Shown piece by piece: positions 4,025 to 18,703 of a stretch of DNA of 48,868 nt (position 1 is the stretch's first letter; each line of letters begins with the position of its first letter). The stretch comes from Chthoniobacteraceae bacterium (GTDB lineage: Bacteria > Verrucomicrobiota > Verrucomicrobiia > Chthoniobacterales > Chthoniobacteraceae), in NCBI GenBank assembly GCA_031409655.1, contig JANNXQ010000067.1, forward strand, positions 1 through 48,868, written 5' to 3'. The position numbers and the translations under genes are program-made. The notes under the pieces were generated by a model that was not told the origin of the DNA, did no database searches, and worked only from the letters and a program-made list of their open reading frames with translations.

Positions 4025-5887
4025 CTAGTAACTAAGACGCAGGCGAATAAAGCGGCGCCCTTCAGTGGGGCTCGACTTCTTGTCGCGGACGACCACACCT
4101 TCGGTGCCATTAAGATAGTTGACGGGTGGACCGGCTAACTCTGTTTCCGTCGCCCCCGAGAACCACTGACTCAGATCGCTCGAGACTTCGACATGATAGG
4201 CGAGCTTAAAGGGAGCTTGGACCCGCAGGAAGCTCATCGTCAGGTGGCCGTCGTTGTCGAGGCCGGGAGTGGAGGTGAACGCGAGAATCTGCAAGGCCTC
4301 GAAGAACCGGGACGCGATCTTCTGCTCGCCGATTTCGTTGGGGTGGTAGCCGTCGGGGAGTCCCTCGGCGGTAAAGTCAAACCCAGTGTGCAGATCCACG
4401 ATGATCACTCGCGCGGTCGGCGTGTTGAGATCTGCGGCCACGCTGGGAATGAGGGCGTTGAGGGCGTTGATGCCAACATTGACCGGGATGCCGCCCCCGC
4501 CGGGAAGGTAGGTCGTCGCGGAGACGGGCGGGATCTTTGCGAGGAAGACCGAGACGATCGGATTCCGGGTGCGGAGCCGCCCGATGGTTTCCTTTAAGTA
4601 AGCGATAGCCAGTACCGGATCCCGTCCCTGCAGCGCGTCGTTCGTTCCGGCGATCAGTAAGACGATGTCTGGCACATAACCCGCCGTCCAGGTGAGGACG
4701 TTGTCGCGGATGTCTTCGGTGCGCAGCCCAGAGTGGCCTTCGTGATTTTGGTCAAAGGGTTTGCCCTGATGATTCGGCCACGGGGGATAGCCGCCGGAGC
4801 CGTTGTCGAGCAAGGTTCCGACGAAGTCGAAATCCGTCGCTTGGTCGAGCAGCTTCACCCAAAGATGATAACGATAGCCGAGGAGAATGTTTTGCGATTG
4901 GGTCAGGGAGTCGCCCAGAGGCATGATGCGGCCCAAGCCGCGCGGGGGTGTGGGAATCTCGGGGGGCGGCACCGCGGAGGCAACGCGAAACCCGGTGTAA
5001 TTTGTGGCTACGTGGGGCTCAAAATAGCTCCGGCCAATGACGGACAGGCCTTCGGTGTTGCTCCCAAAGTGCCCACCGCGCAAATAGCGAAACCCGTTGC
5101 TACTCGCCTCCATCCATTCCTGCACATTGCCGCTCTGATCGAAAGTGCCACTCGGAGAATAGGCCTGATTGTAGGCTCCGACGTTGGTGAGGACTCCAGT
5201 CACGGGATCGTTGCCGTAATTGGCGGAGTTGGCGCTGCCGGGCGGACCCTCCGCAATCGGCGCGGCAGAGGCGCGGGTCGGGAAACTCCAGTAAGAGTTG
5301 CCGGTCTGGAAGAAGGCTGATTTGTACCACTCGTTTTCATTTGGGATGAAGACGGCGGCGCCAGGATTACGGGTGACGCTCGCGGAGTTTGCCGGATACT
5401 GGGGGTAGCCGGGAGTGGGAATCAAGGTGTAGGCGCCGTCTTCGGTGTCGCCGGAGCCCTGACCGTTGTGCAGCCAGTTCGCAAAACGCATCGAATCGAT
5501 GAAACTCACGTAAACCACAGGCTTGTTTTCGAATCCGGTCTTCGCAGCGTAAGTGTAGCTGCCGTCCGCTCCCGCACGACCGATCCCGCCGTGAACTGTG
5601 TCATCGTGCATCGCGTCACTGTAGAGGCTGGAGGGATCGGACGCTGCTTTGGCATTGAGGAACTCGACGTATTGCGCATTCGTCACCTCGTATTTCCCCA
5701 TCCGGAAGGCATAGAGGACGGAGCCAAGATTCGGCAGGTTGTAGATGTTATTGGGTTCAGCCGCGTTCCCGGGATTTCCGATAGCGACGTACTCCATCGT
5801 CACGGCTTGCGCAGTGCTCAAGAGACCGCTGGCGACGAGCAGCCACGCGCGTAGCAGGTGGGCAGAGTGGAGTGGAGCGGTGCGCAC
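4025..5887 (-). CDS. Secreted FGE/SUMF1-like domain fused to SGNH/GDSL hydrolase and a C-terminal beta domain; start uncertain
   Basis: KYEVTNAQY, ENEWYKSA, DQSGNVQEW, RGG (FGE-like); IMPLGDSLT, GTND, DGYHP (SGNH). Confidence 0.8.
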   Translation of the reverse strand: MRTAPLHSAHLLRAWLLVASGLLSTAQAVTMEYVAIGNPGNAAEPNNIYNLPNLGSVLYAFRMGKYEVTNAQYVEFLNAKAASDPSSLYSDAMHDDTVHGGIGRAGADGSYTYAAKTGFENKPVVYVSFIDSMRFANWLHNGQGSGDTEDGAYTLIPTPGYPQYPANSASVTRNPGAAVFIPNENEWYKSAFFQTGNSYWSFPTRASAAPIAEGPPGSANSANYGNDPVTGVLTNVGAYNQAYSPSGTFDQSGNVQEWMEASSNGFRYLRGGHFGSNTEGLSVIGRSYFEPHVATNYTGFRVASAVPPPEIPTPPRGLGRIMPLGDSLTQSQNILLGYRYHLWVKLLDQATDFDFVGTLLDNGSGGYPPWPNHQGKPFDQNHEGHSGLRTEDIRDNVLTWTAGYVPDIVLLIAGTNDALQGRDPVLAIAYLKETIGRLRTRNPIVSVFLAKIPPVSATTYLPGGGGIPVNVGINALNALIPSVAADLNTPTARVIIVDLHTGFDFTAEGLPDGYHPNEIGEQKIASRFFEALQILAFTSTPGLDNDGHLTMSFLRVQAPFKLAYHVEVSSDLSQWFSGATETELAGPPVNYLNGTEGVVVRDKKSSPTEGRRFIRLRLSY

Positions 5888-6075
5888 AGTCGGAGTGACG
5901 AAAAGAACGGCCGTCGGATGGCTACCCGGAGGCAAGCGGAGCCTCAAGGCAGTGTTGAGAAATCGAAAGGGCGGACATCTTTATCGGAGCGGGAGTGATT
6001 TTTTGGACGATCTGCTGGGGGTTACGAGGGGCCGCCGTGGCGTTTTTTCAGGAAAGTCGGAGATTTTTCGGGGAG

Positions 6076-6149
6076 CGCGCCCGGCGGGACTCGAACCCAC
6101 GACCTGCGGTTTAGAAGACCGCTGCTCTATCCAGCTGAGCTACGAGCGC
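6076..6149 (-). tRNA. tRNA-Arg (anticodon TCT), CCA not encoded
   Basis: Minus strand GCGCTCGTAGCTCAGCTGGATAGAGCAGCGGTCTTCTAAACCGCAGGTCGTGGGTTCGAGTCCCGCCGGGCGCG folds as a cloverleaf. Confidence 0.97.
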
Positions 6150-6153
6150 TTTG
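6109..6153. repeat. Left att core, 45 bp (tRNA nt 1-41 plus 4 nt of leader)
   Basis: gtttagaagaccgctgctctatccagctgagctacgagcgctttg identical to 14861-14905. Confidence 0.95.
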
Positions 6154-6154
6154 C

Positions 6155-6183
6155 AGAGTAAAAATGGGGCAAAGACCAGTAAA
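6155..6183 (-). promoter_or_regulatory. Putative element-borne sigma70 promoter for tRNA-Arg
   Basis: Minus strand TTTACT-17 nt-TACTCT ending 5 nt before the mature tRNA 5' end. Confidence 0.55.
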
Positions 6184-6188
6184 ACCGC

Positions 6189-6216
6189 TTGCCATTCTAC
6201 GGTCTGTTTCTACGGT
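6189..6216 (+). promoter_or_regulatory. Putative integrase promoter overlapping arm-type repeats
   Basis: TTGCCA-16 nt-TACGGT ending 6 nt before ATG 6223 (leaderless arrangement). Confidence 0.45.
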
Positions 6217-6246
6217 CACGCCATGAACAAAAACAAAACCGTAGAA
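6195..6246. repeat. Left integrase arm-type repeats
   Basis: TTCTACGGTC at 6195 and 6208, inverted near-copy AACCGTAGAA at 6237; same motif recurs near the right end. Confidence 0.75.
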
Positions 6247-7392
6247 AACAGCGGGAAGACATGGACTCGAACAAACGTTCAGAATTTGGTGCGGCATCGG
6301 AGTGGCCGTTATTATGCGCGGCTCTTCATCGGAGGCAAGGAGCGATGGAAGACACTCGGCACCGACGTACTCGAAGTCGCGAAGACGAAGGTCCGCAAAC
6401 TGGCTGGTGCGGCGGAGAAAATCTCTCGCTCCCAGCGCGCCCATGAGCGCGGACGGATGACCTTCGCCGACGCTGCCGTGATCTTCGATCAACGCCTGGC
6501 CGAAGGCTACGGACTGGCCAGACCGGGGCGCAAGGCCCGGCGCATCCGCCCGCGTGCGGTCAAGTATCGGCTGGAGACTCTGGCCGCGCTTTGGAAGTCG
6601 TGGCCGGACCTGCGCGACATGGATGTGCGAAAGATGAGCGCGCGGGACGCGGAGGCATGGGCAAAGAAGCTGGCGGCGAAATTCTCCGCGACCCGGTACA
6701 ACGGCATTCTGGAAACACTGCGGGCGCTAATCCTGATCGCGCAGGAGGCCGGAGCACTGGCCGACGATCCTACCGAGAGGCTTTCAAGGGAGACGGTGCC
6801 GCAGAAGAAGCTAGTCCTTCCTGAGCGTGGGCAGTTTCTCGATATGGTCGCCGCGATCCGCACCGCTGGCGGGCGCTTCTCCGCTGACTGCGCGGACATG
6901 GTGGAGTTTTTGGCATTCACCGGGGCGCGGCTGAGCGAGGCCGCTGCGGTCGTTTGGAGCGATGTGGACTTCCAGCGCGAGCGCATCCATCTGCGCGTGG
7001 TCAAAGGCGGAAAGCATCCGCGCTTCGTGCCGATGATCGCCGAAGCAAAAACGCTGCTCTCGCGGATGCGGTCGGAACGTCCAGACGAAGCGCCAGCCGA
7101 TCCCGTGCTGCTCGTGAACGAGGCGCAAAAGTCCATGGACCGCGCCGCGCAGAAAGTCGGCGTCGAGCGCATCACACATCACGATCTGCGGCATCTGTTC
7201 GCGACGATCGCCATCGAGAGCGGCGTCGATATTCCGACCGTCGCCCGCTTCCTTGGCCATGTGGACGGCGGTGCGCTCGCGATGAAGGTGTACGGGCACC
7301 TTCGCGACGGGCACGCACTGGAGGCAGCGCGCAAGATTAGCTTCGGCACTAGCGAGCCGGGAAACGTGATCGAGATGCGGGAGGCCGTATGA
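6223..7392 (+). CDS. int: Tyrosine recombinase/integrase
   Basis: TGARLSE, KGGK, HDLRH, LGH, KVY catalytic motifs; N-terminal YYARLFIGGKERWKTLGT arm-binding-like domain. Confidence 0.95.
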   Translation: MNKNKTVENSGKTWTRTNVQNLVRHRSGRYYARLFIGGKERWKTLGTDVLEVAKTKVRKLAGAAEKISRSQRAHERGRMTFADAAVIFDQRLAEGYGLARPGRKARRIRPRAVKYRLETLAALWKSWPDLRDMDVRKMSARDAEAWAKKLAAKFSATRYNGILETLRALILIAQEAGALADDPTERLSRETVPQKKLVLPERGQFLDMVAAIRTAGGRFSADCADMVEFLAFTGARLSEAAAVVWSDVDFQRERIHLRVVKGGKHPRFVPMIAEAKTLLSRMRSERPDEAPADPVLLVNEAQKSMDRAAQKVGVERITHHDLRHLFATIAIESGVDIPTVARFLGHVDGGALAMKVYGHLRDGHALEAARKISFGTSEPGNVIEMREAV

Positions 7393-7949
7393 GCACGAAG
7401 AAGAAGCGCAAGCGCAGACCCACGGCGGCAGCGGCATTCAAGGACGACAAAGGCGCGTGGAAGCACAACCTTAGCGTCGCCACTACTGGCCGGGAGGAAA
7501 ACAACGGTGATCGCCTTGTGTCCGACCTTCTCGGATGCGCTATGCTCGCAAGCGTGACGATTTCCAAAGACGGGAAGGTTCTTGAGCGCGAAACACAGCG
7601 CGAGCAAAAGGCCGCGATTCAAGACTTGGAGGGCTGCCGCCTGAATCTGGCCAGCGAGATTGAGGCCGCAATCTTGCAAGGCAGGCCGGAGTTATTCCGC
7701 GAGATCGCCGAGTGTCTCGGTAGGCCGAAGAGTAACGGCACCCGAGGCAATGCCATTGCTTCCGCGATCGTCGCCTTCGTGCAGATGAGGCGCAGGCTAG
7801 GACGCCTTCCGACCAAGCCGGAACTGCGCGCGGAAACGGAAAAGAAAAGCGGCGGAGTGATCTATCAGAAGAAGTGGGACCGCATCTTCGCTGCACTCGG
7901 ATACGCTGATCTGTATCAGAAAAAGGGCAGACCGAAAAAGGAGACATAG
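7389..7949 (+). CDS. Hypothetical basic protein, possible regulator
   Basis: ATGA overlap with int stop; C-terminal LGRLPTKPELR helix pattern. Confidence 0.6.
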   Translation: MSTKKKRKRRPTAAAAFKDDKGAWKHNLSVATTGREENNGDRLVSDLLGCAMLASVTISKDGKVLERETQREQKAAIQDLEGCRLNLASEIEAAILQGRPELFREIAECLGRPKSNGTRGNAIASAIVAFVQMRRRLGRLPTKPELRAETEKKSGGVIYQKKWDRIFAALGYADLYQKKGRPKKET

Positions 7950-8001
7950 CGGGCGGTACGTTGTCTTAGATCCTCCCAATGCGCCCCCTCAATGTCGGCG
8001 C

Positions 8002-8250
8002 ATGGTAAACGAAACAAAACCACCGCAGACAAAAGCGAAGCGCATCGCGCGTTCGCCTAAGATCACCCTGCCGCTGCTGGAACGCGCGGCAGTCACGCCG
8101 AACGAGTTCGCCGGGCTATTCGGCAAGCAAACCACGTGGGGCTACCGTCAGATATACGAGGGCCGCGTCCGAACGATTAAGACACTGGGCCGCACCCTCA
8201 TCCCCACCAGCGAAGTGCGGAGGCTGCTGGATACAGCGGAGGCTATCTAA
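8002..8250 (+). CDS. Excisionase/AlpA-like HTH protein
   Basis: AVTPNEFAGLFGKQTTWGYRQIYEGRVRTIKTLGRTLIPTSEVRRLL is a typical Xis-like winged HTH. Confidence 0.8.
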   Translation: MVNETKPPQTKAKRIARSPKITLPLLERAAVTPNEFAGLFGKQTTWGYRQIYEGRVRTIKTLGRTLIPTSEVRRLLDTAEAI

Positions 8251-8354
8251 TGGACCCCGACAAAAAAAGAGCGCCGGGCTTTTCGGCACCGGCGCAAGCT
8301 CTGGACGAGCAAGGCGACGATAGCAACGTCACGCGGGAGGGCAAGGGCGAATGA
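8250..8354 (+). CDS. 34-aa coupled ORF (MDPDKKRAPG...)
   Basis: TAATG overlap with upstream gene and ATGA overlap with downstream gene. Confidence 0.45.
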   Translation: MDPDKKRAPGFSAPAQALDEQGDDSNVTREGKGE

Positions 8355-8659
8355 TTGCACTACTCGACGCCAAGGCTGAAAAGTTTGTCCGGCTCGGATT
8401 GGACCGCGCCGCGAGTGAAGGCGAGGTCTCCACTTCCGGCGCCATGTTGTTTCGGCATCTCCGCTCTCAGGGAGTAACCGCCGACGCATTGCTAGGGACC
8501 GCCGCCCCTCACGAGGATTTCCACATCTGGTTTGGAAAATACAACGGACGCCCGATTTCAAAAGTGCCGGGCGATTATCTGCGATGGGTGCTCAGTAAGA
8601 TTGAAGACTTGCCGAGGGAATTTCGCCGCGCCGTCGAACAGGAGCTTGCCACCCGATGA
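8351..8659 (+). CDS. Hypothetical protein with C-terminal DUF3820-like motif
   Basis: IWFGKYNGRPISKVPGDYLRWV motif; coupled to flanking genes. Confidence 0.7.
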   Translation: MIALLDAKAEKFVRLGLDRAASEGEVSTSGAMLFRHLRSQGVTADALLGTAAPHEDFHIWFGKYNGRPISKVPGDYLRWVLSKIEDLPREFRRAVEQELATR

Positions 8660-10296
8660 CAACCGGGCGACCCACTTACGACGAAGCAATGGAGCGGGCG
8701 GCGCTTGGATGCGTCATCCGCGAACCGGAGCGAATGCAGGCTCTCGCCACGAGCGCGGACCCTTCCCACTTCTTCCATCCATCCACGCGCGCCATGTTTG
8801 ACGCGATGCTCTCCATTTACGCGACGGGCGGAACAATCGAGTTCCGCACCATCGGCTCAGAGATGACGAGACTCGGCACGCTCAAGGAAATCGGCAATCC
8901 CGGTTACATTACGCAATGCGCCGATGATGCACCCGCGCCTTCAATGCTCGACGAGTATCTCGTGAAACTTCGTGAGTTGGCGGACATCCGCTTCGGCGAA
9001 GGCGCAGATCAACCGGAGATTAGTGAATGGAGCGCGGTGAACCTGTTCCTTTCCCGTGCGCCGAAGCTGCGGTGCATCGGCACAACTTGGTACGCGTATC
9101 GAGATGGATGCTGGGCTGAAACAAGCCGCCACGAGTTCCGTCCGATCGCGCAGGAGGTGCAACCCCCACTTAAACGCACAGAACGCCGGGAGCGGGCCAT
9201 TCTGGATCACGCCGAGGGTCGTGTGCAGGTGAGCAAAGACAGCCTCCGAGGCTTCTACGCCAAAGACGGCGAGGCCATTCTTATCAATGTCGCCAATGGG
9301 ATTGCCAAAGTCACTGCGGAGCGCTGCGAACTATTGCCGCACAGTCCAGACCACAGCTTCACACTCAAGACCAAGGCGTCGTACGGACCTCACCTCGGCA
9401 GAGAGACGCCATCATTCGCCGCGACACTCAGCGAGGCCATGCCGGACTCCGAAGACCGTCGTCTGTTCCAGATGTTCGCCGGATCGTTGCTCCTTCCTGA
9501 CGCGCGCTTTGAATCCGCTCTCGTCTGTTATGGGCTGGCAGGCACGGGAAAGAGTACGGTCGCGGAGGGTGTAGCCGGAGCTTTGGGTGAACCCTTAGTT
9601 GCCAGGCTGACGATGAAGCAGCTCTGCGACCCCAAAGGCTACCACGTCCCGAGCCTGCGTTTCGCAGCGGTCAATCTAGGTACCGAGCTGGATTCTTTAG
9701 AGGTGGAGGACGGTGGCGCTTTCAAGGCGCTTGCGTCTGGTGAGGCCATTCAGGCCCGACCGATCTACGGCTCACCGTTTGTTATGCAGACAACGGCGAA
9801 GTTGATCTTCCTCAGCAACGACCTTCCGCGCTTCAAAAGCGGCACCGATGGTGAACTAAGGCGGATGCGCTTTATTCGCTTCGACCAGAAGCCCGCCGCA
9901 CCGAATACCAGATTGAAAGAGCAGATCGCCAGCGAGCGCGACGGCATCCTGGAATGGATGATAGAGGGATTGATGGCCGCACTGGACGAGGGTGCCATTC
10001 CGCAAGGTGGAGAAACCTCGCGAGCGGCGCTGAGTAGGTTCAGTATCAGCAATGATCCACTGGCCGGATTCGTCACCTCTCGGTGTGTCCTCGGTGCTCA
10101 CTACCGAGAGGACAAAGGCCACCTTGAAGGCGCATACGCTGAGTATCTGGAAGAGCACGGGATGCCGATCATTATGCAGACAAGCTTCCTAAAACGCCTG
10201 TACGAACGCTACCCGCAAGTGCGCGCCGTTCGTAACCGCGTCGCGGGAGGAGAGCGCCAGAGAGCAATCGTCGGGGTAAAACTGGCCGATGAGTAA
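8656..10296 (+). CDS. Replication protein: DnaB N-terminal-like domain fused to D5/P4-type SF3 helicase
   Basis: Walker A GLAGTGKST, LINVANG, KLIFLSNDLP, LRRMRFIRF; N-terminal ~105 aa follow the DnaB-NTD pattern. Confidence 0.85.
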   Translation: MTTGRPTYDEAMERAALGCVIREPERMQALATSADPSHFFHPSTRAMFDAMLSIYATGGTIEFRTIGSEMTRLGTLKEIGNPGYITQCADDAPAPSMLDEYLVKLRELADIRFGEGADQPEISEWSAVNLFLSRAPKLRCIGTTWYAYRDGCWAETSRHEFRPIAQEVQPPLKRTERRERAILDHAEGRVQVSKDSLRGFYAKDGEAILINVANGIAKVTAERCELLPHSPDHSFTLKTKASYGPHLGRETPSFAATLSEAMPDSEDRRLFQMFAGSLLLPDARFESALVCYGLAGTGKSTVAEGVAGALGEPLVARLTMKQLCDPKGYHVPSLRFAAVNLGTELDSLEVEDGGAFKALASGEAIQARPIYGSPFVMQTTAKLIFLSNDLPRFKSGTDGELRRMRFIRFDQKPAAPNTRLKEQIASERDGILEWMIEGLMAALDEGAIPQGGETSRAALSRFSISNDPLAGFVTSRCVLGAHYREDKGHLEGAYAEYLEEHGMPIIMQTSFLKRLYERYPQVRAVRNRVAGGERQRAIVGVKLADE

Positions 10297-10300
10297 GAAT

Positions 10301-10420
10301 CCGTCCCATCTGTCCCGCCCGTCCCGCCCTGTTTCCTTATGTTCCCTCACACGCACGCACACACGCGCACCCGCGAAAGATAAGAGCGGACCCCGGGACA
10401 CCCGGGACAGCCGGGACACA
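10301..10420. repeat. Putative iteron origin of replication
   Basis: GTCCC at 10303/10312/10321 and inverted GGGAC at 10395/10404/10413 (9-bp period) around a CA/CG-alternating tract, directly after the helicase gene. Confidence 0.7.
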
Positions 10421-10428
10421 AACCGCCC

Positions 10429-10671
10429 ATGAAGGCCGTAGTTCCACTGACCGCAGACCAAGTGGCAAACCTTCACCCCATCATGGAAGCAGCCCGCCTG
10501 CTACCTCACGGCCGGCTTATCGGCCAAGTGCGTCGTGAAGACTTCGACGGCTCGAACGCATCAACAGCAGGCCGATGGCTGCTAACCGTGGCTCTCGTCC
10601 CACCCGAAGCAGCCGAGGCCATGCGGACTGCATACCTCAAGTCCACCGCACCGAGGAAGGCCAAGCCATGA
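10429..10671 (+). CDS. Small hypothetical protein
   Basis: ATG-initiated ORF co-oriented with the replication genes. Confidence 0.55.
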   Translation: MKAVVPLTADQVANLHPIMEAARLLPHGRLIGQVRREDFDGSNASTAGRWLLTVALVPPEAAEAMRTAYLKSTAPRKAKP

Positions 10672-10846
10672 TCCAGATCAGCCACATCATCCCCGGCCTG
10701 CGTCACCGCGAGCCCGGGCAAACCGTCTTCCTCTTATACACCGTGCCGATGACTGCGAGCCCGTGGCGGTCATCGTCGAGCACTGGCGGGGCGTTGGAGC
10801 GATGGCCTACCCCCCCCACCCCGACTAGGAAACCTGTTAGCCGCAC

Positions 10847-10890
10847 ACCACCCGTCCAGAGGTAGACAGAGACCACCCCTCTGGAGTGGT
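10847..10890. other. Dyad upstream of terS-like gene, candidate cos/packaging site
   Basis: TCCAGAGG-15 nt-CCTCTGGA with outer ACCAC/GTGGT arms. Confidence 0.35.
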
Positions 10891-10951
10891 AGCCAAGAAA
10901 AATCAACTTTCCCATCAGCCCCGCTTTTTCGCCCATCCACCACCAAAACGT

Positions 10952-11200
10952 ATGTCAAAACCGATTGAGCTAACCTTTGCCGCCCTCGCGGCAATATACG
11001 GCATCACCGAGCGTTGTCTGCGCGACTTAAAAAAGCGCCGGCCAGATGTATGGGAGCATGATGCCGCCGACGTTTATTACACGTTCCTGGAGCAGCGCAG
11101 CCGTCCCCGCGCGATCCGTGGCGGTGTGGCGTGGATCCACAAAAAGCAGCAGCAGATCGACGCAGCGCGAGGCGCTGGCGGAGGTCAGGGACTCCTATAA
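10952..11200 (+). CDS. Small HTH protein, Nu1-like terminase small subunit candidate
   Basis: ELTFAALAAIYGITERCLRDLKK resembles the lambda Nu1 N-terminal winged HTH pattern. Confidence 0.45.
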   Translation: MSKPIELTFAALAAIYGITERCLRDLKKRRPDVWEHDAADVYYTFLEQRSRPRAIRGGVAWIHKKQQQIDAARGAGGGQGLL

Positions 11201-11411
11201 GCATCGCTTCTCCTCGCTTGGTTACAAGGACTTCTCGGACTACTGCAAGACCAAGTGGGGGATGAGCCGCCGTAATGCTTACGACCTAATGGGAACTGCG
11301 GAGGTCACAAGGAATGTGCAAGAAGTTGCACAAATCAGCCGCGAAGAAGCCCGCCCACTCACTAGGCTCGAAACTCCGGAGCAGCAGCGGGCCGAAACTT
11401 CGGGAGATTGA
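11163..11411 (+). pseudogene. Fragment of a phage HTH-type protein
   Basis: ALAEVRD...GYKDFSDYCKTKWGMSRRNAYDLM...ARPLTRL pattern seen in phage proteins; no convincing start, out of frame with the overlapping upstream ORF. Confidence 0.5.
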
Positions 11412-11423
11412 TAGTAAAGGCGG

Positions 11424-11452
11424 TTGACAATCAATGCTGTGTCCTTCATTTT
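11424..11452 (+). promoter_or_regulatory. Putative sigma70 promoter for the downstream four-gene cluster
   Basis: TTGACA-17 nt-CATTTT shortly before ATG 11461. Confidence 0.5.
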
Positions 11453-11460
11453 CGTTCGTG

Positions 11461-11682
11461 ATGAACGCTGAACCTCCAACCGATCCTGCCAGCGATGCGC
11501 TGCTTACCGGCAGCATGCTCGCCATTCGTTGCGGCAAACCTTCAATGGCCGTTTCCCGTGCGCTGGCCCGTGGAGATATTCAGCCCGATTTCCGAGCGGG
11601 AGGTTTCTCGCTCTTCCGCACTTCCCGTCTCAATGAACTCCGCGTTGCCCTCGACGCCCGCAAGGCTGCACGTCACCGCTAA
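11461..11682 (+). CDS. Small putative DNA-binding protein (Xis/MerR-like)
   Basis: LLTGSMLAIRCG...VSRALARGDIQPD...LFRTSRLNEL pattern. Confidence 0.55.
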   Translation: MNAEPPTDPASDALLTGSMLAIRCGKPSMAVSRALARGDIQPDFRAGGFSLFRTSRLNELRVALDARKAARHR

Positions 11683-11686
11683 CTTT

Positions 11687-12076
11687 ATGAAATCATCCAC
11701 CCCTCAACCGATCGACCTCGCCGCGCTCGAAGCTGTCCTTTTCGAAACCCGCGCACTTACCGCAGAGCGCCGCAAGGCTGCCAAGAAGGTTACTTATACC
11801 GGGCGCGGATTGTTCGGCCCGCAGAACGCCAGCCACGGCGCAAGGTGCGGACTCTGTGGATCACGCTCCACTGCAACCGGCCTTTGCAGGGTCTGCGGCG
11901 GATTACCCGCAGGCAAACGCCTCTCCCCAACGCTAAACAAAACTCCTTCGCAATGGTTCGCCGCTCTCGCCGCAATCGCGGACCCAGTGGGTCGCGTGAA
12001 GTTTTTCAACGAGCATCGCGCTGCGATTTCCGCCGCGAACTATCGCGAGAAGTTCCCGCACGTTCACCGCGAGTAA
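11687..12076 (+). CDS. Zn-finger protein with scaffold-like C-terminal helix pair
   Basis: CGLC...CRVC; C-terminal LAAIADPVGRVKFFNEHRAAI. Confidence 0.6.
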   Translation: MKSSTPQPIDLAALEAVLFETRALTAERRKAAKKVTYTGRGLFGPQNASHGARCGLCGSRSTATGLCRVCGGLPAGKRLSPTLNKTPSQWFAALAAIADPVGRVKFFNEHRAAISAANYREKFPHVHRE

Positions 12077-12098
12077 TTCACCCACCAACCAAAGCCCC

Positions 12099-12599
12099 AT
12101 GTTATCTGCATACGCACCCACAAACGACGCACTCACCACGCCGGAAAATTCCCTCATTAGCTCCTCAGAAGCTGCACGCCGCGCTAAGCTCGCGGAGCAA
12201 GTCGCCCAAGCTACCGACGCACTCGCCGCACACAACGAAGCGCTTCGGAGTAAAGGAGAAACTTGGGCTGGCTATGTTGAGAACGTCGAGGGCTCTATCC
12301 GCACTTTCCTCCTCGCGGAAAGTGCAGTCAGCCATTGCGAACGGGAGAACGAGCAGTGCCGGAAAAGCATTCTCGCGTCACTCCCACACTGCGGCGAACG
12401 GTCAATCCGCGAACGCGTCGTTGTCGCCGGCCGCACTATTGGAATGAACGAAACAGCGATTCGCGAGATTCGCTCTGCCATCGAGACGTATCAGAAGTCA
12501 CACGTCGAGCTGATCACCGAGGCGCGTGAATACGCGAAGTCCGCGAAGATTCCACAGCAGCTTTGGCCGGACGCGATGAAGGCCGCGAGCTTGGACTAA
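12099..12599 (+). CDS. Helical/coiled-coil hypothetical protein
   Basis: 166-aa Ala/Glu/Arg-rich ORF in operon position. Confidence 0.6.
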   Translation: MLSAYAPTNDALTTPENSLISSSEAARRAKLAEQVAQATDALAAHNEALRSKGETWAGYVENVEGSIRTFLLAESAVSHCERENEQCRKSILASLPHCGERSIRERVVVAGRTIGMNETAIREIRSAIETYQKSHVELITEAREYAKSAKIPQQLWPDAMKAASLD

Positions 12600-12613
12600 G
12601 ACTTTGGTTCGAT

Positions 12614-12662
12614 GGCGGCGCGCGTCGGGGTTTTCTCATGGTTCCCGGCGCGCGTCGTTTTC
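12614..12662 (+). terminator. Long hairpin before the tape-measure-like gene
   Basis: ggcggcgcgcgtcgggg pairs with tcccggcgcgcgtcgtt (with G-U pairs), short T run follows. Confidence 0.45.
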
Positions 12663-12683
12663 GGACCTAACTAAAACAACTTT

Positions 12684-13709
12684 ATGGCAAACCTCGCAGC
12701 ATCCATCGTCGCCCGGCTCGGGCTCGATACCGGCCCGCTGAAACGCGGACTCAAAGAAGCCGAGCGCGATGTCGGCGGATTCGCGAAGTCGCTTAACTTC
12801 CTCAAGGGAACGCTCGCGCTTATCGGCGTGCAAAAACTCGTTCAAGGATTCAAAGAAGTCGTCGGACTCGGCAAGGAACTGAACCCTGCACTTAAACATT
12901 CCGAGGAGACCTTGAGGGCACTCAATCAGGAATCGGCGGGTTTGACCGATGCGCAGCTCGAGGCGCTCTCCAAGATCGAGGACGGCTGGCTAGGTGTGGG
13001 TGCCCGTATCAAGGGCTTTTTCGCTCAGGTTGTCTTGAGCGCAGAACAGGCCAGCGCTGCCGCGAACGTGGATAACATCGCAGGCGGTGGAACGGGTGGC
13101 TTCTTCGGTAACTTCAAGAAGGCGTTCGCCGAAAATGGCAATCAGCGCGAACAAGCCAAAAAGGATGCGGAGGCTCGCGCTGCCGAAGCCGCTCAAGAAA
13201 AAGTGGCCGGGATCCACAACGAGATCGTTGAGCTACAGCGAGCGGACGCCACCAGCCGAATCTCGACCGGGGAGAAAATCCTTGAGATCGAGGAACGGAT
13301 CGCCGCCGCGCGAGCCGCACAGTTCAACACGGACCCCGTGTTGCAGGCCGGTGCGGAGAAGACGGAGGCGAAACTTAAGATCGAGAAAGCCGCGCTTGTG
13401 CGGCAGGAAAAGGAGGAGGAGGAAAAGGCATTTCAGCAGCGCATTGATGCGAAGCTCGTCCCCCTGGATGATCGGCGCAGCGCAAAGTCGCAAGCGGCTC
13501 TCCGCGCACGCACCGGGCGGGCCATCAAAAAGAACGATGAAAGCCGAGACCTTACCAACAGGTTGAACGGTCGGCAGCTTTCGCCGCGCAATTTACCGCC
13601 AGACATTGCGGCTCCAAACGCTCCGAAAGTGGCGGCCATCACTCCGGGTGAGACGCAGATTGTTCAGCGGATGGATACCCTGATCGAGAATTTGAAAGTG
13701 AAGGTTTAG
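12684..13709 (+). CDS. Short tape-measure-like protein (341 aa)
   Basis: N-terminus ASIVARLGLDTGPLKRGLKEAERDVGGF is typical of tail tape-measure starts; amphipathic and long coiled-coil segments follow. Confidence 0.65.
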   Translation: MANLAASIVARLGLDTGPLKRGLKEAERDVGGFAKSLNFLKGTLALIGVQKLVQGFKEVVGLGKELNPALKHSEETLRALNQESAGLTDAQLEALSKIEDGWLGVGARIKGFFAQVVLSAEQASAAANVDNIAGGGTGGFFGNFKKAFAENGNQREQAKKDAEARAAEAAQEKVAGIHNEIVELQRADATSRISTGEKILEIEERIAAARAAQFNTDPVLQAGAEKTEAKLKIEKAALVRQEKEEEEKAFQQRIDAKLVPLDDRRSAKSQAALRARTGRAIKKNDESRDLTNRLNGRQLSPRNLPPDIAAPNAPKVAAITPGETQIVQRMDTLIENLKVKV

Positions 13710-13736
13710 ACTTTCGTGAGGTGGCAATGGGGAAGC

Positions 13737-13773
13737 AAAAAGCCCGACCAGCGCAAACTGGTCGGGCTCTTTT
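13737..13773. terminator. Bidirectional intrinsic terminator
   Basis: AGCCCGACCAG-cgcaaa-CTGGTCGGGCT flanked by A and T runs between convergent genes. Confidence 0.85.
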
Positions 13774-13790
13774 GTGTCGAGTGGTGGGGA

Positions 13791-14033
13791 CTAGGCGATG
13801 ACGCGGGAAATCTCCTTTGCGTTCTTCATTTTTCGGAGCGTTATGGGGCTCACTCCGCGCAGCCTCGCCTCTTCGGTTTCCCCGGGTATTTCATCGGGGT
13901 TCCATGCGCGCATCAGGATCAGAGCCAATTTTTCGGGCGTGAGCTTTAGACGGGCAATCGCTATGTCCGTCGCTTCCGATACCAGGGAGGGAGGCAGTCT
14001 TTTCAACAACTGCGTGAGTTGGTCGGCGTTCAT
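13791..14033 (-). CDS. Small protein with possible C-terminal HTH
   Basis: MNADQLTQ...EEARLRGVSPITLRKMK; ATGA overlap with upstream gene. Confidence 0.6.
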   Translation of the reverse strand: MNADQLTQLLKRLPPSLVSEATDIAIARLKLTPEKLALILMRAWNPDEIPGETEEARLRGVSPITLRKMKNAKEISRVIA

Positions 14034-14254
14034 GCCGCGAGCTTCCGTGCCGCTGTCACGGTGGGCGACAGTTGGAGCAGGAACAGCACGCGCAAGAAGC
14101 TCTGGACGGACACCCGCGCCGTCTTCGCTCCCTCTAGCACAAGGGGAGCTAAATCGTGCGGCACTTCCAAGGGCTTTTTCTCTCCCAAGTCGATGAGGAT
14201 ACGACGGGCGGCGGGCTTGGTGGATTTCTTCACTGCGGTTTTCTGTGTTTTCAT
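14030..14254 (-). CDS. Small basic protein, ribbon-helix-helix-like; alternative in-frame start at 14347
   Basis: LEVPHDLAPLVLEGAKTARVSVQSFLRVL pattern; coupled to next gene. Confidence 0.55.
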   Translation of the reverse strand: MKTQKTAVKKSTKPAARRILIDLGEKKPLEVPHDLAPLVLEGAKTARVSVQSFLRVLFLLQLSPTVTAARKLAA

Positions 14255-14256
14255 CG

Positions 14257-14347
14257 GTATGCAAAAAGTCCGCTCCCGAAGGCTTACACCTTTTCGCCGC
14301 ACGGCATCACCCGGAACAGCTATCGGAAACGGACTTTGAATCTGCAT
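14257..14347 (-). promoter_or_regulatory. Structured leader carrying the two antisense target sites
   Basis: AAAGTCCGTTTCCGA pairs with TCGGGAGCGGACTTT, enclosing GGTGATG (14311-14305) and GTGTAAGC (14289-14282). Confidence 0.7.
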
Positions 14348-14350
14348 TAT

Positions 14351-14410
14351 GTGCGTCGCCCCGGTGATGGCCGGGATTTCAGAATGACGGTTGCCGTGTA
14401 AGCAGCAACG
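14351..14410 (-). ncRNA. C4/CI-like antisense RNA
   Basis: Outer stem CGTTGC/GCGACG with two hairpins presenting GCTTACAC and CATCACC, each complementary to a downstream site. Confidence 0.7.
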
Positions 14411-14415
14411 ATTCG

Positions 14416-14445
14416 AGATTGAGCGCACGCCGTGCCACCGTGCAA
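14416..14445 (-). promoter_or_regulatory. Putative promoter of the C4-like RNA operon
   Basis: TTGCAC-18 nt-CAATCT ending 5 nt before the predicted RNA. Confidence 0.45.
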
Positions 14446-14649
14446 GCGCAGAATTGACCGCTACGGGCGCTGCGTGTCCTGATGCCAGTTTCAGGCAAGC
14501 GGATGGCCCGCCTTGTGCGATGCAATGGGTGTCCCCACGCGGTTGCTGTGCGAAACCCTCCCCGGCTTGTCGCCTCGCCACGCGGCGGACATTTTTTTGG
14601 GATAGCGTCCGGCGTGGTCGTGGTTGGCGCGCCGGACGTGACCTTTGGG

Positions 14650-14735
14650 AACTTTTCACGGTCTTCTACGGTCCTGCTCAGAGACTATTTTTCCTCGTCC
14701 CCTAGCCTAACTTTTCACGGTCGTCTTCTACGGTC
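14650..14735. repeat. Right integrase arm-type repeats
   Basis: Two copies of AACTTTTCACGGTC(GTC)TTCTACGGTC at 14650 and 14709; share TTCTACGGTC with the left end. Confidence 0.8.
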
Positions 14736-14860
14736 GCGCCCCTTTTCGGTGGAAAGCGGTGAAAAACGAAGACAAACGCAATCGACCGCAAACCCTTTGT
14801 GGAGGCTGATCCGCAGCCGATTCGGTAAACTGTGAAAAACAGGCAAAACCGCCGTTTTCC

Positions 14861-14905
14861 GTTTAGAAGACCGCTGCTCTATCCAGCTGAGCTACGAGCG
14901 CTTTG
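14861..14905 (-). repeat. Right att core: displaced 5' fragment of tRNA-Arg(TCT)
   Basis: Identical to 6109-6153; tRNA similarity stops 2 nt past the anticodon loop. Confidence 0.95.
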
Positions 14906-15067
14906 GCGACACTGCCCCGAGCGGGAGGATGGATGCCATGGAATGCCTGAACCGACCAGCGGAAAAGCGCGGGTCTGCTGGCGCCAGCGTGTTCGAGGAG
15001 CGGCGGAAGGGGTGAGAAATTCACGAAACTCCCTTTGCACGGCGCGGGACCTTTGCTAGAAATTCCG

Positions 15068-15174
15068 ATGTCGGCGTTGGCTCCCGGGTGATTATCTGAC
15101 TCTGAGCCTCCCAAAAGCTAGACGCTCCCTGTCCTTGGATTTGCGCCTATAGCGGTCAACGCCGACACTTTTTT
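15068..15174 (+). ncRNA. Candidate ~100-nt small RNA
   Basis: 13-bp closing stem TGTCGGCGTTGGC/GTCAACGCCGACA, T run after, promoter-like TTGCAC-16-TAGAAA before. Confidence 0.45.
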
Positions 15175-15361
15175 CTTCATACGAGACGTGGCCGGAAGCG
15201 GACGTGGCACGAATCGCGCTAAAACTGGAACCCTCCGCGGGAGTGGTTGCCCGCGGGTGGGGGAATAACAGCCGGCGTTGTGTCAGATAGGGGACACAGC
15301 GCCGGTCTCTTCCTTTTTGAGGATGACCGGCGCCGGTGATTCGCGATCTGCGGAGGAAAAG

Positions 15362-15442
15362 TGCTCGGGGCGGGACTTGAACCCGCACGCCTTTCGGCAT
15401 ACGCCCCTCAAACGTACGTGTCTGCCATTTCACCACCCGAGC
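15362..15442 (-). tRNA. tRNA-Leu (anticodon GAG), CCA not encoded
   Basis: GCTCGGGTGGTGAAATGGCAGACACGTACGTTTGAGGGGCGTATGCCGAAAGGCGTGCGGGTTCAAGTCCCGCCCCGAGCA with long variable arm. Confidence 0.96.
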
Positions 15443-15581
15443 TTTCAACGAGGCGGGAATCTCTAGCAGTGAGGAAATGGGGCGCAAGCATTCTTTTGGA
15501 AGGTTGGGCTGCGCATCGGGATACGGCCGTTTTTCGGGGCTTGGAGTGGCGGGAGATAAGCCGTAGCAGGACCGGACGCAC

Positions 15582-16310
15582 ATGCTCCTCCGGTCGCTTT
15601 TTGCTTTGCTCACTTTTCCGGTGATGGCCTGCGCCGATGATCTCATGCTTGCGATTCCCACAGCTTCCCGCCAGCTCGTCGTGGTCTCCTCAGACGGCTG
15701 GGAGGCTCCGCGCGCGACCGTGCGGCGGTTCGTGCGCGTCGGAGCTAAGGCGCCGTGGAGTCCCGTGGGTTCCGCGCTGCCGGCGCTGGTGGGGGAGCGT
15801 GGGATGGCGTGGGGGCTGGGCTTGCAGCGGGCGCCGCGCGAAGGAGGGGGGCGAAAGCGTGAAGGGGACCGTTGCGCCCCGGCAGGAGTGTTTCGGATTA
15901 CGGGGGCGTTTGGGACGCTCCCGGAAGATGAAGCGGGCGGGATTCGTCTGCCGTATCGACGCCTCGCAGTCGGGACGGAGGCGGTGGATGACCCAGGGTC
16001 CGCTGCCTACAATCAAATCGTCGAACGCGGTGCGATTGTGAAACCCGACTGGAGGAGGGCGGAGCAAATGTGGAAGACCGGCGGCTACCAGCTCGGGCTG
16101 ACGATCGGTTTCAATCCGCGGAATGTCCGAGGCGCCGGCTCCTGCATTTTCCTCCATGTCTGGGAAGGGCGCCGCACCGGCACGGCTGGCTGCACGGTAT
16201 TGCGCTATCCGGACCTGCGGGTGCTCGCGCACTGGCTCGATCCGGCGGCAAAGCCGACGCTCGTCCAGGGGCCGCGCGAGGCATTGGGAGCGCTCGGACT
16301 TCCCGAGTGA
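15582..16310 (+). CDS. L,D-transpeptidase family protein (YkuD-like)
   Basis: KREGDRCAPAGVF and GSCIFLH...TAGC catalytic motif; signal peptide. Confidence 0.85.
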   Translation: MLLRSLFALLTFPVMACADDLMLAIPTASRQLVVVSSDGWEAPRATVRRFVRVGAKAPWSPVGSALPALVGERGMAWGLGLQRAPREGGGRKREGDRCAPAGVFRITGAFGTLPEDEAGGIRLPYRRLAVGTEAVDDPGSAAYNQIVERGAIVKPDWRRAEQMWKTGGYQLGLTIGFNPRNVRGAGSCIFLHVWEGRRTGTAGCTVLRYPDLRVLAHWLDPAAKPTLVQGPREALGALGLPE

Positions 16311-16323
16311 CGGCTCCTGCGGC

Positions 16324-18525
16324 CTAGCCCGGGAGCGGGAAGCGGCGCGTGAGATTGCGCACCTTTTCGCGGATGGCCGCGAGGGCTGCGGGGTCTTCAC
16401 GCTTGGTCAGCGCTTCGTGCATGAGGTCGGCGATTTCCATCATGTCGTCCTCTTTCATGCCGCGGCTGGTCACGGCAGGCGTGCCGACGCGGATGCCGCC
16501 GCCGAGCGAGATTTTCTCGGTGTCGAAAGGGATGCCGTTCTTATTCACGGTGATGCCGGCGTGATCGAGCACCTCGCTGGCGATCTTGCCGTTGAGGCCT
16601 TTCGGACGGAGGTCCACGAGCATCAGGTGATTGTCCGTGCCGCCGCTGGCGAGGCGGTAGCCGTGATGCTGGAGCCGGGCGGCGAGGGCTTTGGCGTTGC
16701 TCACGACCTGCGCGGCGTACGCTTTGAAGGAAGGCTGGAGGGCTTCGAGGAAGCACACCGCTTTCGCCGCGATGACGTGTTCGAGCGGGCCGCCCTGGAT
16801 GCCGGGGAAAACCTGGCCATCGATGGCTTTCGCGTATTGCTCCTTGCAGATGATGATGCCTCCGCGCGGTCCGCGCAGGCTCTTGTGGGTCGTCGTGGTG
16901 GTGAAGTCCGCCAGCGCGCAAGGATTCGGATGCAGACCGCCCGCGACAAGGCCGGCGATGTGCGCCATGTCCACGAAGAGATAAGCGCCCACGCTATCGG
17001 CAATCTGGCGCATCCGCGCGAAGTCGATGATCCGCGAGTAGGCGCTGGCCCCGGCGGTGATCATCCGCGGCTTCACCTCCAGAGCGACGGCGGCGAGGGC
17101 GTCGTAGTCGATGCGCTCGTCCTTTTCGCTCACGCCGTAGTGGGTGACTTCATAGAAGCGCCCGGAAAAATTCGCTTTGTGGCCGTGCGTGAGATGGCCG
17201 CCGTGGGCGAGGTTCATCGTCAGGATTTTGTCGCCCAGATTCAGCATGGCGAAATAGACCGCGGTATTCGCCTGCGAACCGGAGTGCGGCTGCACGTTCA
17301 CATGCTCGGCTCCAGGAAAGAGCAGCTTCACGCGATCGATGGCCAGTTGCTCGACCACATCCACGTGCTCGCAACCCCCGTACCAACGCCGACCCGGATA
17401 GCCTTCCGCGTACTTATTGGTGAGGCAGGAGCCCTGCGCTTCCATCACGGCGCGGCTGGTGAAATTCTCGCTGGCGATGAGCTCGATGTTCTCAAATTGC
17501 CGCCGCGCTTCGGCCTGCACGGCAGCGAAGATTTCCGGGTCCGCCTCGGCAAGCGACAGCGTCTGCATGTTCGCCATGCCGATTTGCTCCAGCTTCTCGA
17601 TGCGCCGCGCATGGCGTCCACCTTCAAAACCCGTCCCGAGAAATGCCTCGACGATCTTCGCGACCTGGATGCTCTCGACGTGATTCGCCGCAAGGCAGAG
17701 CACGTTGGAATTGTTGTGCTGCCGGGTCGTGCGGGCGTCTTCGGCGCTGGCCACGAGGGCCGCGCGGATTTGCGGATGCCGATTCGCTGCGATGCTCATC
17801 CCGATCCCACTCTTACACGCGAGGATGCCGAAGTCCGCCGCCGTGCTGATGACCTCGTGGCACACCGGTTCGGAGAAATCCGAGTAATCGACCGACTCCG
17901 CCGAGTTCGTCCCGAAGTCGGTGACGATGTGCCCCTTTTTAGAAAGGTAATCGTGGATCGCGCTCTTGAGTTCGACGCCGCCGTGATCGGCCCCGAGGGC
18001 AATGCGGAGGGGGCGGCTGAAGGTGCTGGGCTGGGTGGTGGGTGAAGACTGCGCGGTGGACATGGATGGGGATTTTTCGAGGAAGTTGAAAAGGCTGGGC
18101 GTCGCGCGCTGGAGGGCATCCCGCGTGTCGAGATAGGCGTCGAGACCCATGCCGATCGGATCTGGTACGTCTGGATTCTCATCCCGGGCGCTCTCGTCGA
18201 ATTGGCGGACGAGAAAGACCTTCTCCGCCGCCTCCGGGAAGAACATCAGGATCGTGTCGAGATGCCCCTGGGTCATCGCAAAGATGTGCGTGGCCCAACC
18301 GACGAGATCGTCCGTGAGCGGCTGACTGCGCTGCCAGCCGATGTCGATGCCGAGTGGCTTCAGCGCGGTCACGGAATGCGGACTCGGCGCCTGCCCGTAT
18401 CCCGTCGAGACACCCGCCGAGGCTACTTCGTAGTCCTTGCGCCCCTTGACGGCGTCACGAAAGAGACCTTCAGCCATCGGGCTGCGGCAGATGTTTCCGG
18501 TGCAGACAAAGAGGATGCGTTTCAA
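16324..18525 (-). CDS. glyA: Fusion of LMW protein Tyr/Arg phosphatase, RpiB and serine hydroxymethyltransferase
   Basis: One frame holds [17 protein letters not shown]...GGRHARR, and [31 protein letters not shown] start inferred. Confidence 0.92.
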
Positions 18526-18703
18526 AAGGCGCGGCGTGAGGGCGGGAAGATAGGGACGCAGATTTGCCAAGTCAACGCGGTCGGGTGCCGGGAAGAATGG
18601 GCTTGCCCCGCGCAGTTCCTTCGCGAATGGAAACAGCCATGGCTGTCTCTGACCCATGTTCGAAATGCGACCGCGCCGGCTTCGCGGTGGCCGGTGTGGA
18701 GCC

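Follow-up and report, generated by a model that had tools for sequence, protein, structure and literature searches.

An att-bounded island beside tRNA-Arg in a Chthoniobacteraceae genome, a probable phage-satellite-type element of a verrucomicrobial lineage with a tape-measure-like gene

The stretch of DNA analysed here, called the window, comprises 48,868 nucleotides of contig JANNXQ010000067.1 from a Chthoniobacteraceae bacterium (GCA_031409655.1). It contains, beside a tRNA-Arg gene, an integrated element that is considered below as a probable phage satellite and that is bounded by two exact copies of a 45-bp direct repeat spaced 8752 bp apart. A gene map was derived from codon-position GC content and a list of open reading frames (ORFs), and 17 window ORFs were scanned against the Pfam and PHROGs families (Table 1). 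The exact attachment (att) repeats, the intact integrase and the helicase with its iteron array that a preliminary description of the sequence had proposed were all recovered and, as that description had also stated, no capsid, portal or TerL (large terminase) family was found among the 17 ORFs. The element is organised as a rightward operon running from int to o341 and a two-gene leftward operon at its right end, with a bidirectional terminator between them.

The element is positioned upstream of tRNA-Arg, with the insertion in the 5' half of the tRNA gene. The att core is thus made of this 5' half and not of the usual 3' half, so that the intact tRNA-Arg now needs transcription from upstream element DNA. 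The decamer TTCTACGGTC, allowing at most one mismatch, occurs five times in the 48.9-kb window, a number reached in 0 of 100 shuffles; three copies are placed within about 130 bp inside attL and two within about 200 bp inside attR. These repeats are most simply read as arm-type sites of the integrase. Given the exact att repeats, the arm sites at both ends, the full-length integrase and helicase, and the coupled, in-phase ORFs, the element appears to be intact.

Table 1. Coordinates of the element and of the features within it, in window positions
Feature	Positions	Strand	Observation
tRNA-Arg(UCU), intact	6075..6149	minus	5' part within attL
attL	6109..6153		45-bp core: 5' 41 nt of tRNA-Arg(tct) plus 4 nt upstream
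TTCTACGGTC repeats, left arm	6195..6246		direct copies at 6195 and 6208; inverted copy at 6237-6246
Tyrosine integrase (int), 389 aa	6223..7392	+	ATG at 6223; PF00589 1.8e-21; phrog_1 8e-44
o186, no assigned family	7389..7949	+	start overlaps int stop (ATGA); weak HNH_repeat-like C-terminus, E 0.033
o82, small helix-turn-helix (HTH) protein	8002..8250	+	HTH_17 at E 0.066 only
o102, QSregVF_b/DUF3820-type motif	8351..8659	+	overlaps helicase start; PF12843 9.4e-5, 22.6 bits against a cut-off of 22 (borderline)
Replicase: DnaB-N-like domain, D5_N, superfamily 3 (SF3; DUF5906) helicase	8656..10296	+	no primase domain
Putative origin (ori)	10297..10428		132-bp iteron region directly after helicase stop codon
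o80, conserved small protein	10429..10671	+	36.7% identity to L169:5818-6045
o65, small ORF	10668..10865	+	ATGA overlap with o80
o104, N-terminal HTH protein	10952..11200	+	at TerS position of sibling L169
o121, C-terminal part, ParB/DUF3102-like HTH	11124..11411	+	frame overlaps o104 end; 44.7% identity to L169:1892-2512
o82b, MerR/excisionase-like HTH	11461..11682	+	phrog_2474 0.004; first gene of conserved cargo operon
o129, Zn-ribbon protein, CxxC-x10-CxxC	11687..12076	+	motif and position kept in L169
o166, three long helices	12099..12599	+	AlphaFold2 (AF2) pLDDT 63
o341, all-helical, 341 aa	12684..13709	+	N-terminal ~110 residues tape-measure-like
Bidirectional intrinsic terminator	13737..13772	both	z -4.1 and -6.1; separates cargo and leftward operons
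o80m, HTH-like C-terminal end	13791..14033	minus	ATGA overlap with upstream gene; 34% identity to L169:1221-1652, E 6.5e-4
Small protein, ribbon-helix-helix-like by eye	14030..14254	minus	coding phase; no family match
Non-coding right arm, ~600 bp	14258..14860		hairpin and arm-type repeats
TTCTACGGTC repeats, right arm	14664 and 14726
attR	14861..14905		second 45-bp core copy

The preliminary description had called o341 a mini tape measure, and this reading was retained for its N-terminal part. A full HMMER scan returned only three distant relatives of o341. Of 150 genomes from the same bacterial family, 6 encode proteins whose N-termini were matched by the profile built on these relatives (A2). 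Three of the matched proteins are tape measures recognised by PHROGs (in G123, 375 aa, 2.4e-17; in G124, 588 aa, 2.3e-53; in G108, 469 aa, 5e-51), one stands at the tape-measure position of a prophage (G082), and two lie in the small elements L169 and L158. Comparison of the o341 family with the six tape measures using hhalign gave a probability of 95.6% over 108 columns (E 1.1e-8), an E-value that is inflated because the six were chosen through the o341 profile. A hidden Markov model (HMM) of the six tape measures built without o341, which is a more independent check, returned o341 as its sole match among 60,205 six-frame genome ORFs (E 1.5e-4). The AF2 model of o341 is all-helical (pLDDT 52). 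A word-index search with o341 returned only itself, with no match in IMG/VR or the GenBank phages; 400 genomes of the phylum gave only three marginal matches, and a profile search of the PDB gave only a designed protein at E 0.04. The tape measure protein (TMP)-like proteins on islands are 341-445 aa long versus 375-670 aa for those in prophages of the same host family. The G123 prophage (L154, G123:C238, 7294-8421) has an unusually short tape measure of 375 aa, similar in size to the island proteins, and G123-type phages are candidate helpers.

A sibling of the element was found in L169 (G064:C275), where 9,711 bp lie between 41-bp repeats that correspond to the 5' 41 nt of a tRNA-Met. As in the window element, the L169 integrase adjoins the intact tRNA. 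The two elements have seven genes in common, five of them in the same order. Amino acid identity is 59.7% over 387 aa for the integrase, 71.9% for o82 (L169:8218-8493) and 43% for o82b; the homologue of o121 is a stand-alone gene on the other strand in L169, and the Zn-ribbon gene is found at the same position with its motif conserved (E 0.027). At the o104 position L169 carries TerS, the small terminase subunit (phrog_57, 2.5e-10), and at the o341 position a 445-aa protein whose first ~190 residues match tape-measure PHROGs (phrog_9483, 1.5e-19). The 5.2-kb contig L158 (G018) has the order helicase, two small genes, TerS-like gene, o82b-like gene (6e-9), prohead protease (9.5e-70), o166-like gene (0.0015), a 128-aa gene and, truncated where the contig stops, an o341-like N-terminus (1e-6). 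In L170 and L171 an o82b-like gene is followed by a TMP-like gene.

The other cargo genes gave little beyond these homologues. Homologues of o82b are present in 10 of 150 family genomes. For o129, the preliminary description of a scaffold-like Zn-finger protein stood as regards the Zn-ribbon motif; no Pfam or PHROG family matched it, and an Atlas search returned nothing above 0.87. An orphan in the word-index search, o166 gave no match at E <= 0.001 in a BFVD fold search. No tblastn or phmmer match was obtained between the window cargo proteins and the related helicase loci. The proposed Nu1-like HTH is consistent with the position of o104, and a cos-like dyad was not recovered, the only structure being a hairpin at 10855-10884 (z -2.8). 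Over 11046-11411 the coding phase leaves the o104 frame and continues in that of o121, the change falling near 11120-11200. In L169 the homologue of the o121 part is a stand-alone gene of 206 aa; the window copy lacks both the N-terminus of that gene and an ATG. The junction could reflect a frameshift, a scar left by recombination or the use of a GTG at 11124 as start codon. An indel is absent at this junction in the public contigs.

In the replicase, DnaB_N was matched over the full model (6e-15), DUF5906 at 2e-9 and D5_N at 2e-4; PHROG families named 'DNA primase' were matched in their C-terminal, non-primase parts only. At E <= 1e-10 the helicase has 74 relatives, several of which are labelled 'P4 family primase-like' by their sources, and the DnaB_N architecture is common to only six of these 74, query included. 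The nearest helicases, P0003-P0006, stand at 44-54%. Identity to homologues from cultured phages is at most 26%, and single-protein locus scans with the helicase gave no matches. The putative ori contains two iteron arrays, at 10301-10329 and 10388-10419, which flank a spacer of about 60 bp. The first consists of GTCCC(G/A)-type 9-mers, and the second of three exact CCGGGACA copies (10393-10418), 9 bp apart and in the opposite orientation, with no further exact copy in the window. Of 26 related loci, 18 show the same geometry 3' of their helicase gene, namely a 9-bp-spaced pair with an inverted copy about 70-110 bp away; this census was counted from printed positions and without a shuffled control. 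The repeat sequence itself differs locus by locus, and the region looks like an element-specific iteron origin.

The replicases of the window element and L169 (L169:6191-7654) share only the DnaB-N-terminal domain, which is followed by an SF3 helicase in the window and by a DnaB-type (AAA_25) helicase in L169. Approximately eight AAGGACGT repeats lie between the L169 replicase and the next gene. From these domain arrangements, the replicase appears to have been exchanged behind a conserved N-terminal domain between the two elements.

Alignment A1 of 20 helicase relatives was used to collect 73 metagenome, 13 genome and 35 IMG/VR loci. Verrucomicrobiota account for 11 of the 13 named genome loci, in agreement with the verrucomicrobial host that had been thought probable, and the metagenomes that yielded the lineage are of freshwater sediment, peat and soil. 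Among the 42 loci of at least 6 kb (window counted), 25 have an integrase of one cluster. Thirty-five distinct loci were sorted into 15 of an island type (integrase upstream on the same strand), 10 of a phage type (TerL beside the helicase) and 10 that were cut short. Repeats of att type were found in 8 of 18 loci examined (window included) and enclose 8.3-12.5 kb: the window element at tRNA-Arg (8.75 kb), L097 at tRNA-Thr (9.6 kb), L098 at tRNA-Lys (8.3 kb), L103 at tRNA-Leu (9.8 kb), L051 at tRNA-Ala (11.6 kb), L054 at tRNA-Gly (11.2 kb), L080 at tRNA-Asp (12.5 kb) and L026 at the start of gltX (9.3 kb). In L102, att repeats of at least 16 bp are absent. The 5' half of the tRNA gene also forms the core in L103, L097 and L169, and the 3' half is used by four other related islands. 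In L026, a 9,521-bp metagenome contig, the target is the start of a protein gene and not a tRNA, and the repeats of at least 127 bp comprise the first 13 nt of gltX and upstream DNA. This contig had been considered circular; that reading was rejected, the 127-bp repeat being gltX start and upstream DNA, and hence the att sites of an integrated copy.

Phage parts on the related loci were scanned with Pfam and PHROGs in nine and then 14 loci. TerS was found in L098 (4.6e-9), a major capsid protein in L102 (phrog_617, 2e-34; PF05065, 1.6e-13), a ClpP-type prohead protease in L051, TerS with a protease-capsid fusion on the short contig L030, and tail-fibre-like (Peptidase_S74) and Laminin_G_3 proteins in L054 and L103. 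The large proteins of the last two loci (Peptidase_S74 tail-fibre-like and Laminin_G_3/InlB-repeat; L054:11735-16611 and L103:13681-14928) are possibly satellite-borne receptor-binding parts. The islands that carry such single phage parts had no TerL and no portal in these scans, and TerL was found only in the phage-type locus L106. In a quick IQ-TREE phylogeny, 10 phage-linked helicases and one cut viral contig were placed opposite all 15 island copies, the window copy among them, and nine loci of unknown type, with an SH-aLRT of 91 on the key branch, below the starred level of 95. The phage label was this tightly clustered in 0 of 500 shuffles, which is weak as statistics since related sequences share labels. 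The tree argues, within the limits of its sampling, that the window copy is not a recent remnant of a sampled phage.

The lineage to which the element belongs consists of verrucomicrobial att-bounded islands of 8-12.5 kb and is undescribed as a family. Judged by their gene content, its members appear to join a module for integration, regulation and replication to a small operon linked to packaging and to tail or head assembly, and never to carry a full set of virion genes. Because the element appears intact, the lineage is conserved, and the phage-assembly-linked operon comes without a full virion gene set, we favour, with moderate confidence, the reading that the element is an integrated phage-satellite-type island that most likely rides on a helper phage. 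The satellite-type layout seen in the preliminary description is accordingly kept as that of an integrative, self-replicating island, from which we infer satellite status.

Under this satellite reading, the leftward pair of small DNA-binding proteins would keep the rightward operon off until a helper phage, either infecting or induced, provides the signal on which Int and a small HTH protein (o82 or o82b) excise the element as a circle. The DnaB_N-SF3 helicase would then bind the inverted 9-bp iterons beside its own gene, and its DnaB-N-like domain would probably recruit host DnaG, because the element has no primase. The cargo operon (o104, o82b, o129, o166 and o341) would divert helper packaging and tail or capsid assembly, and the 8.8-kb element DNA would leave in helper-made particles. 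A more specific version is held only tentatively, as a possibility that we think is rather doubtful: that this verrucomicrobial satellite lineage uses its own TerS and a short TMP to set particle tails or poison helper tail assembly, a tail-length hijack independent of EPIPs and PLE11, and that its replicase is a DnaB-N/SF3 chimera borrowing the host primase.

Several observations weigh against the satellite reading. None of the window cargo proteins could be assigned to a curated family (Pfam, PHROGs, PADLOC). The TerS assignment of o104 is weak by profile (probability 19.6%, E 0.0012), and TerS profile A3 gave a probability of 1% against both o104 and o121, so that the Nu1-like HTH of the preliminary description stands by position and not by profile. 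Where the o104 and o121 frames meet, there may be a broken gene or a scar. The likeness of o341 to tape measures is confined to its N-terminal third, and the choice of the six tape measures, the uncontrolled iteron census and the support of the key tree branch, as given above, count in the same direction. The k=31 contigs of the public run data end inside the 45-bp repeat, so that attB and attP junctions are not visible there.

A helper phage was likewise not found in the same genome, where the finds were confined to a split TerL (C20) and a cluster of head genes (C109). Pfam families for capsid, TerL and portal gave no match in this genome, a result that is misleading since phmmer searches with the TerL and portal sequences of the loci found copies. 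The cluster at G000 C109:80-6439 has a portal-like gene, head-type genes and a 46% homologue of the gene preceding the tape measure in the G123 prophage, and host genes begin exactly where the G123-type prophage has its tape measure. At G000 C20:1448-3289, TerL is split into two ORFs. These loci could be prophage remnants or a tail-less head cluster.

The alternative that survives best, although we regard it as unlikely, is an integrative, self-replicating island whose transfer does not depend on a helper and whose cargo serves the host or the island, for example by anti-phage interference with tail assembly, with spread that is rare or by other means. The lack of packaging or capsid families in the window cargo agrees with it, a tape-measure-like decoy could act purely in defence, and satellites and related islands are described in the available text of PMC11364771 as carrying defence genes, including tail-assembly inhibitors. 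PADLOC, however, returned no defence family in 15 ORFs, the sole exception being a weak P-loop match of the helicase. The TerS of L169 makes sense only for packaging, and elsewhere in the lineage there are islands with a capsid protein or prohead protease.

Decay of a prophage, leaving its integration and replication modules and fragments of morphogenesis genes, is less probable still. Related helicases do occur in full phages, directly upstream of terS-TerL, and the partial likeness of o341, the possible frameshift at o104/o121 and the other phage remnants in the genome would all be expected of a remnant. Decay is harder to reconcile with exact att repeats and intact arm sites, with eight bounded relatives that are all 8.3-12.5 kb long, with island helicases that stand apart from phage helicases in the tree, and with a similar-sized sibling, ~40-70% diverged in protein sequence, that keeps the gene order and exact att sites in another tRNA. 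An autonomous temperate virus of very small size, with its structural proteins among the five cargo proteins without a family, is highly improbable: o341 has viral or verrucomicrobial hypothetical proteins as its nearest Atlas clusters, but no packaging ATPase and no capsid-like fold or family was found, o166 and o341 are predicted as long helices only, and a complete set of virion genes would not fit into the cargo region (10429-13709).

Among the remaining features, o82 is a candidate AlpA/Xis-type regulator, and clear HTH_17 genes occupy its position in 4 of 9 related islands (E 1e-5 to 2e-10); the Xis-like gene proposed earlier is thus represented by weak matches of o82 and of the MerR-like o82b. 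The product of 14030..14254 is a candidate repressor, to which a ribbon-helix-helix fold is ascribed by eye. Just upstream of the leftward operon, a hairpin on the minus strand (14265-14337; z -3.06, with 0 of 200 shuffles equally stable) matches no Rfam family; it may serve as an operator or as an element of the 5' untranslated region. No Rfam family other than tRNAs was matched at E <= 1 in 5500-15600, and the suggested C4-like RNA switch was therefore dropped. At 0.58-0.61, the GC content of the element is slightly below that of the right flank (0.63-0.65). The flanks hold ordinary host genes, namely an FGE-sulfatase/GDSL protein, a tRNA-Leu and an ORF containing serine hydroxymethyltransferase. 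A single 793-aa ORF (16324-18705, minus strand) joins low-molecular-weight phosphatase, RpiB and serine hydroxymethyltransferase domains. In G098, a genome of the same genus, the left-flank gene and tRNA-Arg(tct) are shared and the element is absent beside the tRNA; the right flank of G098 is not syntenic.

On the basis of its genes, the element appears to lie outside P4, the phage-inducible chromosomal islands (PICIs), the capsid-forming PICIs (cfPICIs), the PICI-like elements (PLEs) and the EPIPs; none of these fits, as the preliminary description had anticipated in recognising no known satellite family. The P4 gene set includes Psu, Sid, Delta and Epsilon, homologues of which were not found in Pfam and PHROG scans of the 17 ORFs at E <= 0.1. 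P4 is resembled in the tRNA integration, tyrosine integrase, D5_N/SF3 helicase and lack of own capsid genes; it differs in that the window replicase has a DnaB-N domain in place of the primase domain, and its CI/C4 immunity RNA was not found in the Rfam search.

In Staphylococcus aureus pathogenicity islands (SaPIs), which belong to the PICIs, the iteron ori immediately follows the replicase gene, an arrangement also seen in the window element. Further likeness to PICIs lies in a size of about 9-15 kb, an integrase at one end, small HTH regulators, a packaging/interference operon after the replicase and ori, and TerS in the sibling and related islands. Of the features by which PICIs are recognised, the window element has the integrase and a replicase with adjacent iterons, the latter without a primase domain; the AlpA-like match of o82 is weak, and terS has no family match in the window beyond the low-probability profile alignment of o104. 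It also differs from PICIs in that no capsid-morphogenesis gene was found in it and in the presence of the tape-measure-like o341. In the SatelliteFinder logic, an element with an integrase, an AlpA-like gene and a replicase would rank no higher than a 'Type C PICI', and the PICI model treats tail components as 'forbidden', according to the available text of PMC10085698; islands of the L169 type would therefore be rejected. The host phyla reported in the available part of that paper do not include Verrucomicrobiota, and Verrucomicrobia are unmentioned in what is available of its main text (PMC10085698).

The capsid protein or prohead protease on the related islands L102, L051 and L030 recalls cfPICIs, although capsid protein, portal, protease and head-tail connector genes were not found in the window element. 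PLEs have a gene set specific to Vibrio and ICP1. They are described as using a large serine recombinase (PMC9618062, in the part available), whereas the window integrase is a tyrosine recombinase. The same part of PMC9618062 describes VEIMEs (virion-encapsidated integrative mobile elements) as small integrative elements with integrase, primase/helicase, AlpA and TerS homologues, some of them in marine Verrucomicrobia, and as defined by recovery from virus particles. The window lineage, compared here with VEIMEs by description, comes from freshwater sediment, peat and soil and is represented by contigs of bulk metagenomes. The VEIME datasets may bear on the novelty of the lineage.

Known phage satellites are mostly from Proteobacteria and Firmicutes, and literature naming both 'phage satellite' and 'Verrucomicrobiota' was found on another subject only. 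A tape-measure-like gene on a satellite has so far been reported only in recent preprints. The EPIPs of Mycolicibacterium are satellites with both TerS and a tape measure protein, and TMPs are otherwise not known in satellites, bar a proposed TMP-like protein in PLE11, according to the available text of a 2025 preprint (PMC12822802). The window element resembles EPIPs, as compared by description, in its TMP-like gene and possibly its TerS-like gene. It differs in its tyrosine integrase and in that capsid, scaffold and head-tail adaptor genes were not found in the window element, where EPIPs are described with a serine integrase, major capsid protein, scaffold, adaptor and stopper (PMC12822802, same part). 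The lineage would extend satellite biology to Verrucomicrobiota of soil, peat and sediment, and it would bring to two or three the independent cases in which a satellite bears a tape-measure-like gene, a trait excluded by design in current satellite finders with tail genes being 'forbidden'. The lineage also presents a concrete conserved operon of TerS, HTH, Zn-ribbon, helical and TMP-like proteins.

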